64,000 bases of DNA, taken from the sequence record MF158045; one strand, given 5' to 3'. Source of the DNA: Shigella phage Sf22. The notes under the pieces are model-generated. The model saw nothing but the letters and a program-made list of their open reading frames with translations. It ran no database searches and was not told the DNA's origin. Of this stretch, positions 33,989 through 41,973 are shown in pieces (the stretch's first letter is position 1; every line of letters starts with the position of its first letter). The position numbers were made by a program, and so were the translations under genes.

Positions 33989-33996
33989 TATAAATA
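33989..33996 (+). promoter_or_regulatory. Late promoter (TATAAATA) for gene 36
   Basis: Exact TATAAATA ~25 nt upstream of the gene 36 ATG. Confidence 0.6.
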
Positions 33997-34687: not shown

Positions 34688-37600
34688 ATGGCTACTTTAA
34701 AACAAATACAATTTAAAAGAAGCAAAACCGCAGGAGCACGTCCTGCTGCTTCAGTATTAGCCGAAGGTGAATTGGCTATAAACTTAAAAGATAGAACAAT
34801 TTTTACTAAAGATGATTCAGGAAATATCATTGATCTAGGTATTGCTAAAGGCGGTCAAATTGATGGAAATGTAACTATTGATGGAACTTTACGCGTCAAT
34901 GGACCAATAAACAACTTTGGAAATTTTTCTACAAGTGGTACTATTACGGCAAGTAATATTGTTTCTGCTACAGTATTCAGATCAACATCCGGTTCATTTT
35001 ATACAAGAGCAATAAATGATACTGCAAATGCCCATCTTTGGTTTGAAAATACGAATGGATCGGAGAGAGGGGTTTTATATTCAAAACCACAGTCTGAAAA
35101 TGAAGGCGTAATTACAATGCGCGTTCGCCAAGGAACCGCAGCAGGGGCTCAAAATTCAGAATTTCATTTCATTTCTACTGATGGCGGTATCTTCCAGGCA
35201 CGCAAATTAACTGCTTTAACTTCTATTAGTACACCAACTATTAGTGTTAATTTAATTAATCATGATTCTAAAGCCTTTGGACAATACGATTCACAATCAT
35301 TAGTTCAGTATGTTTATCCTGGAACCGGTGAAACAAATGGTGTAAACTATCTTCGTAAAGTTCGAGCTAAATCAGGTGGAACTATTTACCATGAAATTTG
35401 TACAGCTCAGACTGGGCTAGCTGATGAAGTTTCTTGGTGGACTGGTAATATACCGTTATTTAAACTATACGGTATTCGTAACGACGGTAGAATGATTATT
35501 CGCAATAGCTTGGCCATTGGTACTGTGACGGAAGGGTTTCCGTCAAGCGATTATGGAAATACTGGGGTAATGGGAGATAGGTATTTAGCTCTTGGCGATA
35601 ATGCTTCTGGACTTAAATGGGTTCGTACTGGCGTTATTGACTTAATGGCTAACGGTATTTCTGCGGCGTCTATTATTAATAATGGTATTAACAGTACTAA
35701 AAAATTAATGGTTGGTTATAGTCGAGATTCTGGTTCTACTTGGGATTTCCCAAATAACAACCAAGCAATGTTTACTGCGCGTACCGATGTTGATGGTAAT
35801 AATAACGGTGATGGTCAAACTCATATCGGTTATAGCAGTAATTCTAAAATGTATCACTATTTCCGTGGTACAGGTCGTATGTCCGTTAGTATGGGCGATG
35901 GACTTCTTGTTGAGCCTGGCATTTTAGATATTAAAACTGGTTCAAATTCATTAAATTTGCGTGCTGATGGTACTGTTGCATCTACTCAAGAAGTTAAGCT
36001 TAATAATGGGTTATTCTTTAATAGTAGTTCTTCTAACGCCGGTCTTAAATTTGGCGCTTCTTCTTCTATAAATGGAACTAAGACAATACAATGGAACGCA
36101 GGCACCCGCCCGGGTCAGAACAAAAGCTATGTGACCATGAAAGCATGGGGCAATGCATTTGAGGATAATACTAATAAAAACAGAGAAACTGTATTTGAAT
36201 TAGGCGATGGACAGGGTTGGCATTTTTATTCACAGCGCGTTGCTCCTGCAGCAGGTTCTACTGCCGGTTCTGTTGAATTTGCGATGGCCGGTAGTTTATT
36301 AACTTCTGGTTCTATTACAACAAGATCTTCCCTGAATGCTGATAATGGATTGTCTGTAAATGGACAAGCTAAATTTGGTGGAACGGCTGATGTATTAAGA
36401 ATTTGGAATGCTGAATACGGTGCTATTTTCCGTCGCTCAGAAAGTAATCTTTATATTATACCGACTCCTAAAGATGCTGGAGAATCGGGCGGTATAAGTA
36501 ATCTTAGACCATTGATAATAGAACTGAACACTGGCACAGTTAAAATGTCGCATGATGTTCATTTAGGAGATTCTGGATCTGGTACAGGACTTTTACAAGT
36601 AAGTAATAGTCTTAAAACTATTAAAATGATATGTCCAGTAACTATTAATGAACGCAATGCAGCGCTTACCCTGGATTCTCCTTCATCTTCTTCTGCTAAT
36701 TATTTACAGGGTTCTAAAGCTGGAACTAGATCATGGTACGTTGGTCTTGGCGGCGCTGGAAATGATTTATCTCTTTATAGCCAATCTTATGGACATGGTC
36801 TTGTTATAAGTGATAATTTCACGTCAATCACTAAGCCTCTTAAAGTCGGCAATGCCCAATTAGGAACTGACGGTAATATTACCAATGGTTCAGGAAACTT
36901 TGTCAACTTAAATACCACGTTAAATCGTAAAGTTAATTCTGGATTTATTACTTATGGAGCAACCTCTGGATGGTATAAGTTTGCAACAGTAACAATGCCA
37001 CAATCCACTTCGACGGTCTTCTTTAAAATAGTTGGAGGTTCTGGATTTAATAGCGGATTATTCACACAATGTAATATTGCTGAAATTGTTTTACGTACTA
37101 GTAATGAAAGACCTTCTGACTTAAATGCTGTATTATACACAAGAACAACTGGAATGTATAGCGCAGCATTTAGAAATATTGCAGTTAACAATGTCTCTGG
37201 AAATACATATGACATTTATGTTTATGCTGGAACATATTGTAATCAACTAGTTTGTGAATGGTCATGTACCGAAAATGCTACTGTTAGCGTTATTGGTATT
37301 AACTCATCTACCCAATCACCTGTGGATGCTCTTCCAGATACAGCAGTTGATGGGCAAGTTGCTAATGTTCTTAATAACTTGGTTGATCGTGGTAAAGTTA
37401 AGCGTTATGAAGCCGATTCTGAAATAGCTATTAATAGCCAAACCGGTATTCGTATCAGAAGCAATGCCGATAAAACTGGTTCTGTGGCTACAATGTTACG
37501 AAATGACGGTGGCAGTTTTTATATTCTGTTTACAGATAAAAATGCCACTGATGGCGCAGCAACTGTTAATGGTGATTGGAATAGTAAACGTCCTTTCGCA

Positions 37601-38377
37601 ATTAACTTAACAACCGGCGAAGTGATGATGAATAACGGCATAGCTGTTCGCAGCGCTGCTTTATTCTATAATAGCATAAACGTCAAAGATAATGGTTCTA
37701 TTAACTTTGATAAGTCCGGCGCTAACCCGAGAAACATGCGTATATTCCATGCAGGTGATGGCACTCGTGGTAATCGCATTGAAATTGCTGATGAAACAAA
37801 CTATATTGCTTACTTCCAAAAATTACCTGGTGGTCAAAATCAGGTTTCATTCAATAGTGCTACACTTTCTGGATTAACACAGTGTAATCAATTTGGTGTT
37901 AACACAACAAACGCACTTGGTGGAAACAGTATAACATTTGGTGATACTGATACTGGTATTAAGCAAAATGGCGATGGATTATTAGACATATATGCGAACA
38001 ACGTGCAAGTGTTCCGTTTCCAAAATGGTGATTTGTACTCATATAAAAATATAAATGCTCCAAACGTTTATATTCGTTCTGATATTCGTTTAAAATCTAA
38101 CTTCAAACCTATCGAAAATGCACTTGATAAAGTTGAAAAACTCAATGGTGTCATTTATGATAAAGCTGAATACATCGGTGGAGAGGCAATTGAAACTGAA
38201 GCGGGTATTGTAGCTCAAACGTTACAAGACGTTTTACCAGAAGCCGTCCGTGAAACAGAAGACAGCAAGGGTAATAAAATACTCACTGTTTCTTCTCAAG
38301 CCCAGATTGCTCTTCTGGTTGAAGCTGTGAAAACGCTTTCTTCTCGTGTAAAAGAACTTGAATCTAAACTTATGTAA
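34688..38377 (+). CDS. 37: Long tail fibre distal subunit with C-terminal intramolecular-chaperone-like domain
   Basis: 1229 aa; shares a WGN.F....TVFE.GD...HFYSQR motif with gp34; last ~105 aa (...YIRSDIRLKSNFKPIENALDKVEKLNGVIYDKAEY...) resemble a self-cleaving chaperone module. Confidence 0.9.
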   Translation: MATLKQIQFKRSKTAGARPAASVLAEGELAINLKDRTIFTKDDSGNIIDLGIAKGGQIDGNVTIDGTLRVNGPINNFGNFSTSGTITASNIVSATVFRSTSGSFYTRAINDTANAHLWFENTNGSERGVLYSKPQSENEGVITMRVRQGTAAGAQNSEFHFISTDGGIFQARKLTALTSISTPTISVNLINHDSKAFGQYDSQSLVQYVYPGTGETNGVNYLRKVRAKSGGTIYHEICTAQTGLADEVSWWTGNIPLFKLYGIRNDGRMIIRNSLAIGTVTEGFPSSDYGNTGVMGDRYLALGDNASGLKWVRTGVIDLMANGISAASIINNGINSTKKLMVGYSRDSGSTWDFPNNNQAMFTARTDVDGNNNGDGQTHIGYSSNSKMYHYFRGTGRMSVSMGDGLLVEPGILDIKTGSNSLNLRADGTVASTQEVKLNNGLFFNSSSSNAGLKFGASSSINGTKTIQWNAGTRPGQNKSYVTMKAWGNAFEDNTNKNRETVFELGDGQGWHFYSQRVAPAAGSTAGSVEFAMAGSLLTSGSITTRSSLNADNGLSVNGQAKFGGTADVLRIWNAEYGAIFRRSESNLYIIPTPKDAGESGGISNLRPLIIELNTGTVKMSHDVHLGDSGSGTGLLQVSNSLKTIKMICPVTINERNAALTLDSPSSSSANYLQGSKAGTRSWYVGLGGAGNDLSLYSQSYGHGLVISDNFTSITKPLKVGNAQLGTDGNITNGSGNFVNLNTTLNRKVNSGFITYGATSGWYKFATVTMPQSTSTVFFKIVGGSGFNSGLFTQCNIAEIVLRTSNERPSDLNAVLYTRTTGMYSAAFRNIAVNNVSGNTYDIYVYAGTYCNQLVCEWSCTENATVSVIGINSSTQSPVDALPDTAVDGQVANVLNNLVDRGKVKRYEADSEIAINSQTGIRIRSNADKTGSVATMLRNDGGSFYILFTDKNATDGAATVNGDWNSKRPFAINLTTGEVMMNNGIAVRSAALFYNSINVKDNGSINFDKSGANPRNMRIFHAGDGTRGNRIEIADETNYIAYFQKLPGGQNQVSFNSATLSGLTQCNQFGVNTTNALGGNSITFGDTDTGIKQNGDGLLDIYANNVQVFRFQNGDLYSYKNINAPNVYIRSDIRLKSNFKPIENALDKVEKLNGVIYDKAEYIGGEAIETEAGIVAQTLQDVLPEAVRETEDSKGNKILTVSSQAQIALLVEAVKTLSSRVKELESKLM

Positions 38378-38379
38378 AA

Positions 38380-38400
38380 GAGGGCTTCGGCCCTCTAAGG
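38380..38400 (+). terminator. Stem-loop AGAGGGC-TTCG-GCCCTCT after gene 37
   Basis: Perfect 7-bp stem; weak T-tract, so may be a stability element rather than a strong terminator. Confidence 0.4.
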
Positions 38401-38407
38401 ATTTTTA

Positions 38408-39202
38408 ATGGCAATTGTAGGTGTTCCTGGCTGGATTGGTGAATCTGCCGTGAATGAAACTGGACAGCGTTGGATGGATGCTGCGATGAGAGCAGTTCGT
38501 GTTTCAGTTCCTGGTTGGATGAGCTCAATGGCTGGGCAATCTAAAGAAGTATATTATAGCATTGGTGCTAGCAATTCTTACAATAAAGACACACTAATAA
38601 ATTATCTCAAATCTCAAGGTAGTACTCCTGTTGTTGTTACTATTACTGGTAACCTAGTTTCTTCATCTGCAAGGCAACCTTGCTTAGATTTTCCTAGCTC
38701 ATTAACTAATGCTTATGTAACGCTTATTATAAATGGCGGTGTAACAGTATATGGTCGCGGAGGACGCGGCGCGCAAGCGGGAAACCAGGCGGGTGAAGCT
38801 GGTGGTACTGCAATTAACAATGGTATAGGTACTCGTCTACGAATCACTAACAATGGAGCAATCGCTGGCGGTGGTGGTGGTGGCGGCGCCCAATCAACTG
38901 ATAATGGATGGGGAGGTAAATATGTTTCTGGCGGCGGCGGCGGACGTCCTTTCGGAGCTGGTGGTAATAATGGAGCAAAAGCTCCGGGTGCATCAGCATC
39001 TTTAACATCTCCAGGCGCAGGTGGAAAAATGTATTCCGGCGTTGGATACTACGGTGGTGACGGTGGTAATGTTGGTGAACGAGGTAAGGATGCGGTTAGA
39101 TTGAACGGCTATTCGAACTCACCTGGCGCAGCAGGTAAAGCTGTTACTGGTAACGCACCAACATGGACTAAGGTTGGTACAATATATGGTTCAAGAGTAT
39201 AA
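38408..39202 (+). CDS. 38: Receptor-recognising adhesin (T2-type gp38) with glycine-rich motifs
   Basis: 264 aa; several poly-Gly blocks (GGGGGGG, GGGGG) separating variable segments; position after 37. Confidence 0.85.
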   Translation: MAIVGVPGWIGESAVNETGQRWMDAAMRAVRVSVPGWMSSMAGQSKEVYYSIGASNSYNKDTLINYLKSQGSTPVVVTITGNLVSSSARQPCLDFPSSLTNAYVTLIINGGVTVYGRGGRGAQAGNQAGEAGGTAINNGIGTRLRITNNGAIAGGGGGGGAQSTDNGWGGKYVSGGGGGRPFGAGGNNGAKAPGASASLTSPGAGGKMYSGVGYYGGDGGNVGERGKDAVRLNGYSNSPGAAGKAVTGNAPTWTKVGTIYGSRV

Positions 39203-39234: not shown

Positions 39235-39891
39235 ATGGCAGCACCTAGAATATCATTTTCGCCCTCTGATATTCTATTTGGTGTTCTAGATCGCTTGTTC
39301 AAAGATAACGCTACCGGGAAAGTTCTTGCTTCCCGGGTAGCTGTCGTAATTCTTTTATTTATGATGGCGATTGTTTGGTATAGGGGAGATAGTTTCTTTG
39401 AGTACTATAAGCAATCAAAGTATGAAACATACAGTGAAATTATTGAAAAGGAAAGAAATGCACGCTTTGAATCTGTCGCCCTGGAACAACTCCAGATAGT
39501 TCATATATCATCTGAGGCAGACTTTAGTGCGGTGTATTCTTTCCGCCCTAAAAACTTAAACTATTTTGTTGATATTATAGCATACGAAGGAAGATTACCT
39601 TCAACAATAACTGAAAAATCACTTGGAGGATATCCTGTTGATAAAACTATGGATGAATATACAGTTCATTTAAATGGACGTCATTATTATTCTGACTCAA
39701 AATTTGCTTTTTTACCAACTAAAAAGCCTACTCCCGAAATAAACTACATGTACAGTTGTCCATATTTTAATTTGGATAATATCTATGCTGGAACGATAAC
39801 AATGTACTGGTATAGAAATGATCATATAAGTAATGACCGCCTTGAATCAATATGTGCCCAGGCGGCCAGAATATTAGGAAGGGCTAAATAA
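39235..39891 (+). CDS. t: Holin
   Basis: 218 aa, MAAPRISFSPSDILFGVLDRLFKDNATGKVLASRVAVVILLFMMAIVWYRGDSF... matches recalled T4 holin T. Confidence 0.95.
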   Translation: MAAPRISFSPSDILFGVLDRLFKDNATGKVLASRVAVVILLFMMAIVWYRGDSFFEYYKQSKYETYSEIIEKERNARFESVALEQLQIVHISSEADFSAVYSFRPKNLNYFVDIIAYEGRLPSTITEKSLGGYPVDKTMDEYTVHLNGRHYYSDSKFAFLPTKKPTPEINYMYSCPYFNLDNIYAGTITMYWYRNDHISNDRLESICAQAARILGRAK

Positions 39892-40164
39892 TTATTTGTT
39901 CGTATACATCTCTAGATATCGATATACACCCTCAAAACCCTCGTTGAATTCGTCGATGAGGGTTTTCTTATCTTCTTGAGTTAATTCAGAAACAATTTTA
40001 CGGAATGAATTCTGATTTAATTTTCTACCTTCATGCGTTACTCCAATCTCATTCAGAAATGCAATAAAATTAGCACGATTCTCAACAATATCTTCTCTGG
40101 AAAATTTAATCAAAATAGACGCAACAGTAATAATTTCACGAACTGTATCAATGTTTTTATTCAT
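39892..40164 (-). CDS. asiA: Anti-sigma70 factor
   Basis: 90 aa, MNKNIDTVREIITVASILIKFSREDIVENRANFIAFLNEIGVTHEGRKLNQNSF... matches recalled T4 AsiA. Confidence 0.93.
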   Translation of the reverse strand: MNKNIDTVREIITVASILIKFSREDIVENRANFIAFLNEIGVTHEGRKLNQNSFRKIVSELTQEDKKTLIDEFNEGFEGVYRYLEMYTNK

Positions 40165-41647: not shown

Positions 41648-41973
41648 TTAAACCATCCTTTAATACGCTGCCACAAAGTTTTCTGTTGAGCTTTGTTAAC
41701 ACCAATTGAGCGAATAACTGGTTGAGATTCCTGGAATTCTTTATAATCAGCAAGGTAAATTTCATAAGCCGCTTGAACAAAAGTACTGATCGCTGCCATA
41801 AAGTTCTTGCGAATTCCCATAGAGGCTTCAGAACCGCCACGGATGATTAAATATTTACCAGTCTTAATCTTTACGATACTTCCAAGATAAGCTCCATGGT
41901 ACCAGATATCCCAACCCTCTTGAGTAGGTTCTGCACAACGACGAAGTTCATTGATAATTTCTAACTTGTTCAT
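41644..41973 (-). CDS. Hypothetical protein (109 aa)
   Basis: ORF track. Confidence 0.5.

Follow-up and report, generated by a model that had tools for sequence, protein, structure and literature searches.

The gene 38 product of Shigella phage Sf22 is very probably a T2-type tail-fibre adhesin with OmpC-binding loops set between conserved glycine-rich blocks

Gene 38 of Shigella phage Sf22 raises the question of what kind of protein stands at the end of the long tail fibres, which receptor it recognizes and by what route its specificity changes. To address this, we analysed a stretch of 64,000 nucleotides from the phage (sequence record MF158045; hereafter the window, with positions counted from its first letter). 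A preliminary description of this DNA, made from the letters alone, had named the product a T2-type gp38 adhesin and host-range determinant. Our analysis indicates that gene 38 very probably encodes a monomeric T2-type gp38 tail-fibre adhesin, which caps the distal long-tail-fibre tip of a T2-type Tequatrovirus and carries OmpC-binding loops. The gene and its attachment domain are located as follows.

38408-39202, plus strand: gene 38, T2-type receptor-recognizing adhesin (open reading frame, Pfam, Protein Data Bank (PDB) matches, fold model and identity to Sf22)
38408-38533, plus strand: N-terminal gp37-attachment domain of gp38, residues 1-42 (Gp38_N match; conserved together with the gp37 C-terminus across relatives)

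The open reading frame (ORF) runs from ATG to TAA and specifies 264 amino acids plus the stop codon. Its product is 100% identical to Sf22 gp38 (YP_009614900.1; species Tequatrovirus sf22). Two Pfam families cover nearly the whole protein, namely GP38 (PF05268; E = 8e-73, 245.3 bits) at residues 47-264, matching profile positions 1-218 of 218, and Gp38_N (PF21721; E = 8.3e-18, 64.6 bits) at residues 1-42, the curated cut-off being 25 bits for both. At the sequence level, the matches in PDB are the receptor-binding domain of phage PP01 gp38 (9v85; 5.6e-56) and phage S16 gp38 (6f45_D; 3.5e-45). An AlphaFold2 model built with 88 homologues reached a mean predicted local distance difference test score of 91.8 and a predicted template-modelling (TM) score of 0.87. 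Foldseek matched this model to 9v85 (E = 2.9e-26, root-mean-square deviation 1.0 Å, target-normalised TM score 0.95) and to 6f45_D (E = 3.3e-23, query-normalised TM score 0.81), and found no structures in PDB beyond these two. The fold, which has been solved for the homologues, is thus predicted here to be a β-helix followed by a polyglycine-II sandwich. Taken together, the two Pfam families, the PP01 and S16 structure matches and the predicted fold bear out the earlier adhesin call. The gene, its deposited sequence, the OmpC dependence of the phage and the fold of its relatives are already known, and the annotation is an ordinary and correct one.

The name gp38 also belongs to the T4-type assembly chaperone, a protein absent from the virion, and several close homologues, ime09, SA21RB and teqhal among them, are labelled 'distal long tail fiber assembly catalyst' in GenBank. 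The chance that the Sf22 gene encodes such a chaperone is nevertheless virtually negligible. Alignment with the T4-type protein had been named beforehand as the observation that would speak against an adhesin, but BLASTP against T4 gp38 (NP_049864.1, from NC_000866) returned only E = 0.81 over 5 residues, 4 of them identical. Moreover, T4 gp38 matches no Pfam family, whereas the window protein matches both GP38 and Gp38_N, and its modelled fold is that of the adhesins 9v85 and 6f45. The RefSeq record of T4 itself states that the 'gp38' of the T2 subfamily is unrelated to T4 gp38. We therefore rejected the chaperone reading on the null BLASTP result and the adhesin fold match. The 'assembly catalyst' label is still carried by the records of ime09, SA21RB, SA20RB, teqhal, teqsoen and RB18; it is a legacy error or name transfer, because that function belongs to the unrelated T4 gp38.

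The adhesin reading also concerns the fibre subunit on which gp38 would sit. Gene 38 lies directly downstream of a T2-type gene 37 and upstream of gene t, in the canonical order 37-38-t.

34688-38377, plus strand: gene 37, distal long-tail-fibre subunit of T2 type, 1229 amino acids (ORF; Pfam Peptidase_S74, Gp34_trimer and gp37_trimer)
38078-38251, plus strand: Peptidase_S74 intramolecular chaperone domain, gp37 residues 1131-1188 (Pfam PF13884, E = 3.4e-15)
39235-39891, plus strand: gene t, holin, 218 amino acids (Pfam Phage_holin_T, E = 1.1e-116)

The window gp37 is 100% identical to Sf22 gp37 (YP_009614899.1) and forms a single-member cluster, being unique as a whole protein. Its N-terminal ~640 residues are homologous to T4 gp37, and BLASTP against the T4 protein aligns only residues 1-798. 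Because the alignment stops at residue 798, this gp37 lacks the receptor-binding tip of T4. From what is known of the family, the S74 domain is expected to be removed by cleavage once gp37 has trimerised, which would leave a tip capped by gp38. In all seven of the seven relatives compared, the last ~480 nucleotides of gene 37, gene 38 and gene t are conserved at 89-100%; the tip-proximal end of gp37 and the attachment domain of gp38 therefore travel together.

Next, we considered how the protein is built. Glycine makes up 22% of gp38 and 32% of residues 110-264, and the mean over the 41 ORFs of the window with 150 or more amino acids is 6.8%. Owing to the glycine codons, the local G+C content rises to 51-52.5%, versus ~33% in the flanks. 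The preliminary description had placed poly-glycine blocks at 38830-38960, and two runs indeed lie inside this interval: G154-G160 (GGC GGT GGT GGT GGT GGC GGC) and G175-G179 (GGC GGC GGC GGC GGA). Such a 7-residue run together with a 5-residue run is rare in residue shuffles of gp38 (P = 0.0003, 20,000 shuffles), and no glycine run longer than three occurs in any other ORF of the window. We then derived mean column entropies from an alignment of 105 sequences of the gp38 family. This profile resolves five conserved glycine-rich blocks, namely YGRGGRG at residues 115-121, residues 132-160, GGGGGRPFGAGG at residues 175-186, residues 199-206 and residues 216-226; four of the five have an entropy of 0.33-0.89 bits, while the weakest, at residues 199-206, has 1.42. 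Between and after them lie five hypervariable loops of 2.0-2.7 bits (residues 122-131, 161-174, 187-198, 207-215 and 227-239), to which the length variation among the 105 homologues is almost entirely confined.

38771-38800, plus strand: hypervariable loop A, residues 122-131, AQAGNQAGEA (entropy 2.01 bits; length 7-16 in the family; aligns with PP01 loop A)
38867-38887, plus strand: Gly7 run, G154-G160, containing (GGT)4; recombination junction in phage SH-1 (codon and allele comparisons)
38888-38929, plus strand: hypervariable loop B, residues 161-174, AQSTDNGWGGKYVS (entropy 2.57 bits; aligns with PP01 loop B)
38930-38944, plus strand: Gly5 run, G175-G179, containing (GGC)4 (codon, allele and entropy comparisons)
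38966-39001, plus strand: hypervariable loop C, residues 187-198, NNGAKAPGASAS (entropy 2.11 bits; aligns with PP01 loop C)
39026-39052, plus strand: hypervariable loop D, residues 207-215, KMYSGVGYY (PP01 alignment, entropy and PP01 crosslinking data)
39086-39124, plus strand: hypervariable loop E, residues 227-239, KDAVRLNGYSNSP (PP01 alignment, entropy and PP01 crosslinking data)
39125-39199, plus strand: conserved C-terminal segment, residues 240-264, GAAGKAVTGNAPTWTKVGTIYGSRV (entropy 0.81 bits; identity to phages Phaginator and SH-1 resumes here)

The five variable segments coincide with loops A-E of PP01, and the alternation of conserved blocks and loops agrees both with these loops and with the scheme of Trojet et al. 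The long second block closes with the G7 run, and the third (GGGGGRPFG) opens with the G5 run; both runs are therefore part of the conserved glycine-rich blocks, which in the homologue structures serve as a scaffold presenting the loops. The family entropies thus sustain the earlier statement that glycine-rich motifs separate variable segments, and the further claim that these segments determine the receptor finds support in the literature, in which the loops set receptor choice.

As for the receptor itself, Sf22 and phage KRT47 are reported to need OmpC or to depend on it strongly, and both adsorb less well when loops 5 and 7 of this porin are mutated (Tinney et al. 2022, as summarised in PMC12892980 and PMC11654681). 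Compared with the window protein, KRT47 gp38 has substitutions only at residues 28, 89 and 262, all outside the loops. In phage PP01, whose gp38 binds OmpC, G208 of loop D crosslinks to OmpC loop 5 and Y230 of loop E to loop 7, and Y209 is a functionally tested residue; G208, Y209 and Y230 align with the identical residues G213, Y214 and Y235 of the window gp38. In addition, the two proteins have in common the motifs N-x-W-x-GKYV in loop B, NNGA(K/R) in loop C and G-x-GYY in loop D, which are not found in the gp38 of T2 (FadL/OmpF), M1 (OmpA) or Phaginator. From these data we infer that gp38 itself contacts OmpC in Sf22.

An alternative is that the adhesin binds another receptor, such as OmpA, OmpF, FadL, Tsx or a lipopolysaccharide sugar, the OmpC dependence being indirect or due to another component. 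In its favour, Tsx, OmpA or OmpF is the receptor of most gp38 adhesins characterised, the OmpC binders being a small group, and one substitution in a loop can be enough to switch the receptor; Q206L of RB68, for instance, moves it from OmpF to OmpW. We consider this alternative quite unlikely, however, since the window gp38 has the very sequence of Sf22 gp38, with loops identical to those of KRT47, and the published summaries describe both phages as OmpC-dependent. Furthermore, the best relative of known receptor, by structure as well as sequence, is the OmpC binder PP01, whose contact residues are kept, while the loops of T2 (FadL/OmpF) and M1 (OmpA) are unlike those of the window. Finally, gp38 is the only candidate for the fibre tip, because gp37 is without the OmpC-binding needle of T4 type, which also counts against another receptor.

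Some points nonetheless weigh against an OmpC-binding gp38 cap. The OmpC assignment comes from two secondary summaries of Tinney et al. 2022, and the genetics show that the phage requires OmpC, not directly that gp38 binds it. The fold of Sf22 gp38 is a predicted one, and the cleavage of gp37 and docking of gp38 are proposed by analogy. Moreover, the window gp38 and PP01 gp38 are no more than 55% identical in the receptor-binding domain (64% in the C-terminal part), with substantial differences in loops A and E; because of this low identity and these differing loops, the contact geometry with OmpC is drawn by analogy.

On the reading of gp38 as an OmpC-binding cap, adsorption may proceed as follows. 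First, gp37 would trimerise, assisted by the S74 chaperone at its C-terminus, and this domain would then be cleaved off. The N-terminal domain of gp38, residues 1-42, would dock on the exposed gp37 tip, as suggested by the S16 complex. The remainder of gp38 is predicted to fold into a small β-helix and a polyglycine-II sandwich built from the glycine-rich motifs, including G7 and G5. Loops A-E, at the far end, would bind the extracellular loops of OmpC, with a contact geometry modelled on PP01. This binding would constitute the reversible first step of adsorption and set the host range.

How, then, does the specificity region change? In the phage collection searched, the nearest gp38 alleles, with 97.3-99.6% protein identity, are those of ime09, ESh26, CrRp10, ECP2301, KRT47, SP21535 and SA21RB, all of 264 amino acids and with the same runs of 7 and 5 glycines, and the next-nearest proteins stand at ~65%. 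The CrRp10 paper is silent on gp38 and on the receptor. When the specificity domain was used as query against 50,697 phage records, the same seven isolates matched at 97.7% or above and the next at 60-63%; Sf22 itself is absent among the hits from this collection. The Sf22 allele is thus an uncommon one. A scan of IMG/VR returned no relatives closer than 70%, and for this reason the nucleotide comparisons were made on GenBank phage records.

Within this allele clade, the ratio of nonsynonymous to synonymous divergence (dN/dS) is 0.02-0.07, residues 110-264 included, with dS of 0.08-0.33 and a constant length of 264 amino acids. Purifying selection, as estimated from these sequences, keeps the allele steady. 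Position 89 lies in the β-helix part; the window codon (38672-38674, AGG) gives an arginine present only in the window/Sf22 protein, where all other listed members of the allele group, as well as SH-1, have glycine. A sister allele (P0002/P0134), which together with P0131 belongs to the same 90% cluster as the window gp38, is 92% identical and of the same length. Its 20-21 substitutions fall nearly all in loops B-E and include Y214W and Y235F, at the equivalents of the OmpC-contact residues of PP01. This sister allele may recognize a different OmpC variant or a different receptor.

Larger changes are also seen. Phaginator, the closest backbone relative over 20 kb, is 96-98% identical to the window from 38200 to ~38600, 52-77% identical up to ~39100, and 100% identical from 39200. 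The gp38 of Shigella phage SH-1 (L033 301-1092, PQ642266.1) equals the window protein over residues 1-160 except for R89G, switches allele directly after the last glycine of the G7 run and returns to identity at ~residue 241; its loops B-E are unrelated to those of Sf22, making it a natural chimera. Likewise, many megablast matches to Tequatrovirus gene 38 end at gene nucleotides 478-482, that is, at the end of the G7 run, and the conserved C-terminal segment provides the homology arm on the right side of the specificity cassette. This pattern, exchange within or near conserved motifs, is that of Tétart et al. (1998) and Trojet et al. (2011), and it was reproduced by experiment in recombinants of CM8 × EV240, which exchanged gp38 from HVS2 onward. 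The diversification observed therefore takes two forms, constant-length substitutions clustered in loops and cassette recombination with junctions at conserved motifs. The specificity region thus evolves through point substitutions, which cluster in the loops, and through cassette swaps by homologous recombination, with the conserved glycine-rich blocks and the conserved C-terminus as probable crossover sites.

The preliminary description had offered another route, in which the glycine-codon runs are slippage-prone tracts whose expansion or contraction changes the adhesin and switches the receptor rapidly. This route, which we hold to be very unlikely, has some observations on its side. The repeats (GGT)4 at 38870-38881 and (GGC)4 at 38930-38941 are the sole pure trinucleotide repeats of at least four units in the whole window. 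Across the family, sequences unaffected by such contraction have 6-9 glycines in the first run and 2-5 in the second, and 4 of 123 cluster representatives (P0007, P0045, P0052 and P0058), all rare metagenomic variants, have 3-5 fewer glycines in the first run between the same 6-residue flanks as a common allele. For P0007, the DNA (L027/L028) shows an exact 9-nucleotide deletion in the (GGT)n tract, in two assemblies of one sample.

The weight of the evidence, however, is on the other side. By the measure of contingency loci, four units (12 nucleotides) are short for a hypermutable tract. The longest pure tracts, (GGT)4 and (GGC)4, are only 12 nucleotides each, and Tandem Repeats Finder, run down to a score of 30, reported neither glycine run. 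All eight of the eight isolate alleles keep exactly 7 and 5 glycine codons despite the dS values given above, and in several of these alleles the repeats are broken up by synonymous exchanges between GGC and GGT. Among the listed members of the 38-member 90% cluster, proteins have 264 or 262 amino acids, all with the same runs. We first read the family-wide range in run length as possible slippage, and the flanks showed mostly run-edge substitutions or other loop alleles: most of the differences come with different flanks or neighbouring loop alleles, and the change from GGGGGGG-A in the window to GGGGGGG-G in PP01 is a run-edge substitution without change in alignment length, not an insertion or deletion. 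All four variants with the same flanks are contractions, each in a cluster of 1-2 sequences, and in the one seen at the DNA level (P0007) the gene is also split by a +1 frameshift. Both runs, furthermore, lie in conserved structural blocks and not in receptor loops. In T6 gp38, deletions of whole glycine-rich motifs were not viable or recoverable (Trojet et al.), the word 'slippage' is not found in this main comparative study, and the receptor switches on record arose through point mutations in loops or through swaps of the cassette. Slippage of the glycine codons as a rapid receptor-switching route is therefore not supported.

Two observations on the runs stand by themselves. Among the eight alleles (L001, L021-L026 and the window), 7 of the 12 run codons vary, with frequent GGC/GGT changes at the third position and a constant codon number, and 77 of 795 nucleotide sites vary over the whole of gene 38. 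The relative with the 9-nucleotide (GGT)n deletion comes from metagenome MUNK18-1 / ERR2241733 (L027 4347-5133 and L028 3779-4565) and has a 1-nucleotide insertion near the equivalent of window position 38577, which yields ORFs of 58 and 210 amino acids; it could represent a defective variant or reflect a fault in the assembly.

Deletions of slippage type in the glycine runs thus occur occasionally, with nothing showing that they are tolerated or alter receptor choice, and triplet slippage appears not to contribute to the evolution of specificity. It is conceivable, though at a very low probability, that in-frame slippage or deletion in G7, of the kind seen in L027/L028 and in the three other contractions with the same flanks, yields viable adhesins in which the polyglycine-II lattice is re-registered and the loops are presented differently; on this view, the glycine runs would act both as recombination junctions and, at low frequency, as a second source of host-range variants. 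Since the cassette junctions fall at the end of the G7 run, the glycine-codon runs matter as homology anchors for recombination and not as slippage tracts.

Together, the pair SH-1 and Sf22 provides a clean natural cassette swap, with its left junction exactly at the end of a poly-glycine run, and illustrates the published recombination model; this example and an evidence-based rejection of slippage as the switching mechanism are two modest additions. In T2-type phages host range is determined mainly by gp38, which is also an engineering target for therapeutic phages; the allele that a phage carries therefore predicts its receptor.

We also examined the surroundings of gene 38. The gp37 shaft is a mosaic when compared with seven relatives: 34700-35300 is like KRT47 and ime09, 35500-36300 is like none of the seven, and 36500-37700 is like SP21535 and SA21RB (92-97%) and only ~55% identical to KRT47. 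At 1229 amino acids, gp37 is 31-64 residues shorter than in the phages sharing the gp38 allele (1260-1293). The region 41700-41900, in arn.4 / arn.3, is 82.5-84% identical to six of the seven relatives and 96% to SP21535, and is another small mosaic segment, of 200 nucleotides.

Two elements bear on transcription.

33989-33996, plus strand: TATAAATA, T4-type late-promoter consensus upstream of genes 36-37-38 (pattern search)
38379-38396, plus strand: C(UUCG)G tetraloop hairpin with a perfect 7-bp stem (sequence, RNA fold and terminator-like scan)

The former is a candidate promoter of the operon, assigned by position only, because the motif count across the window is no higher than chance. No further copy of TATAAATA occurs on the plus strand between 33996 and 53208. 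The absence of the motif there speaks against a late promoter directly upstream of gene 38, which is therefore probably co-transcribed with genes 36-37. The hairpin sits between the gene 37 stop codon (38375-38377) and the AAGGA ribosome-binding site of gene 38 (38397-38401), and its fold z-score is weak (-1.36 in a 61-nucleotide context). We rejected it as a terminator on account of this z-score and of a U-run separated from the stem by the ribosome-binding site. Extra-stable C(UUCG)G hairpins of the mRNA-stabilising kind are known from intergenic regions of T4, and the one found here probably stabilises the mRNA or takes part in its processing, instead of ending transcription. Just past gene t, at 39934-39966, a hairpin with a 14-bp stem and a T-rich tail lies within the 3'-terminal part of the convergent gene asiA (minus strand, 39892-40164). 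It resembles a terminator for the late tail-fibre/holin transcript; the SA21RB record has terminators annotated at the equivalent place.

Finally, we compared the locus with known systems. T4 gp38 has no more in common with the window protein than its name and its place downstream of gene 37, and is not an adhesin, and T4 gp37 has its own receptor-binding tip, unlike the window gp37. T2 gp38, the prototype of the family (FadL/OmpF), shares family, gene position and motif order, with 57.5% identity by tblastn, but differs in all five loops and in receptor. The gp38 of S16, solved in a complex of the gp37-gp38 tip (PDB 6F45), shares the full-length architecture, that is, the N-terminal gp37-binding domain, the β-helix and the polyglycine-II sandwich. 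It has 42-48% identity to the window protein and shorter, unrelated loops, and comes from a phage of a different, Gelderlandvirus-type genus. The receptor of this Salmonella phage protein is also OmpC (PMC12892980). The closest structural counterpart is gp38 of PP01 (PDB 9V85), an E. coli O157 phage, which has the fold predicted for Sf22 gp38 and shares with it the glycine-rich motifs and the receptor class OmpC. Loop D is two residues longer in Sf22, loop A and most of loop E differ, and the first glycine run counts 7 residues in Sf22 and 8 in PP01, through a Gly-to-Ala change, while the host OmpC variant is that of Shigella for Sf22 and that of O157 for PP01.

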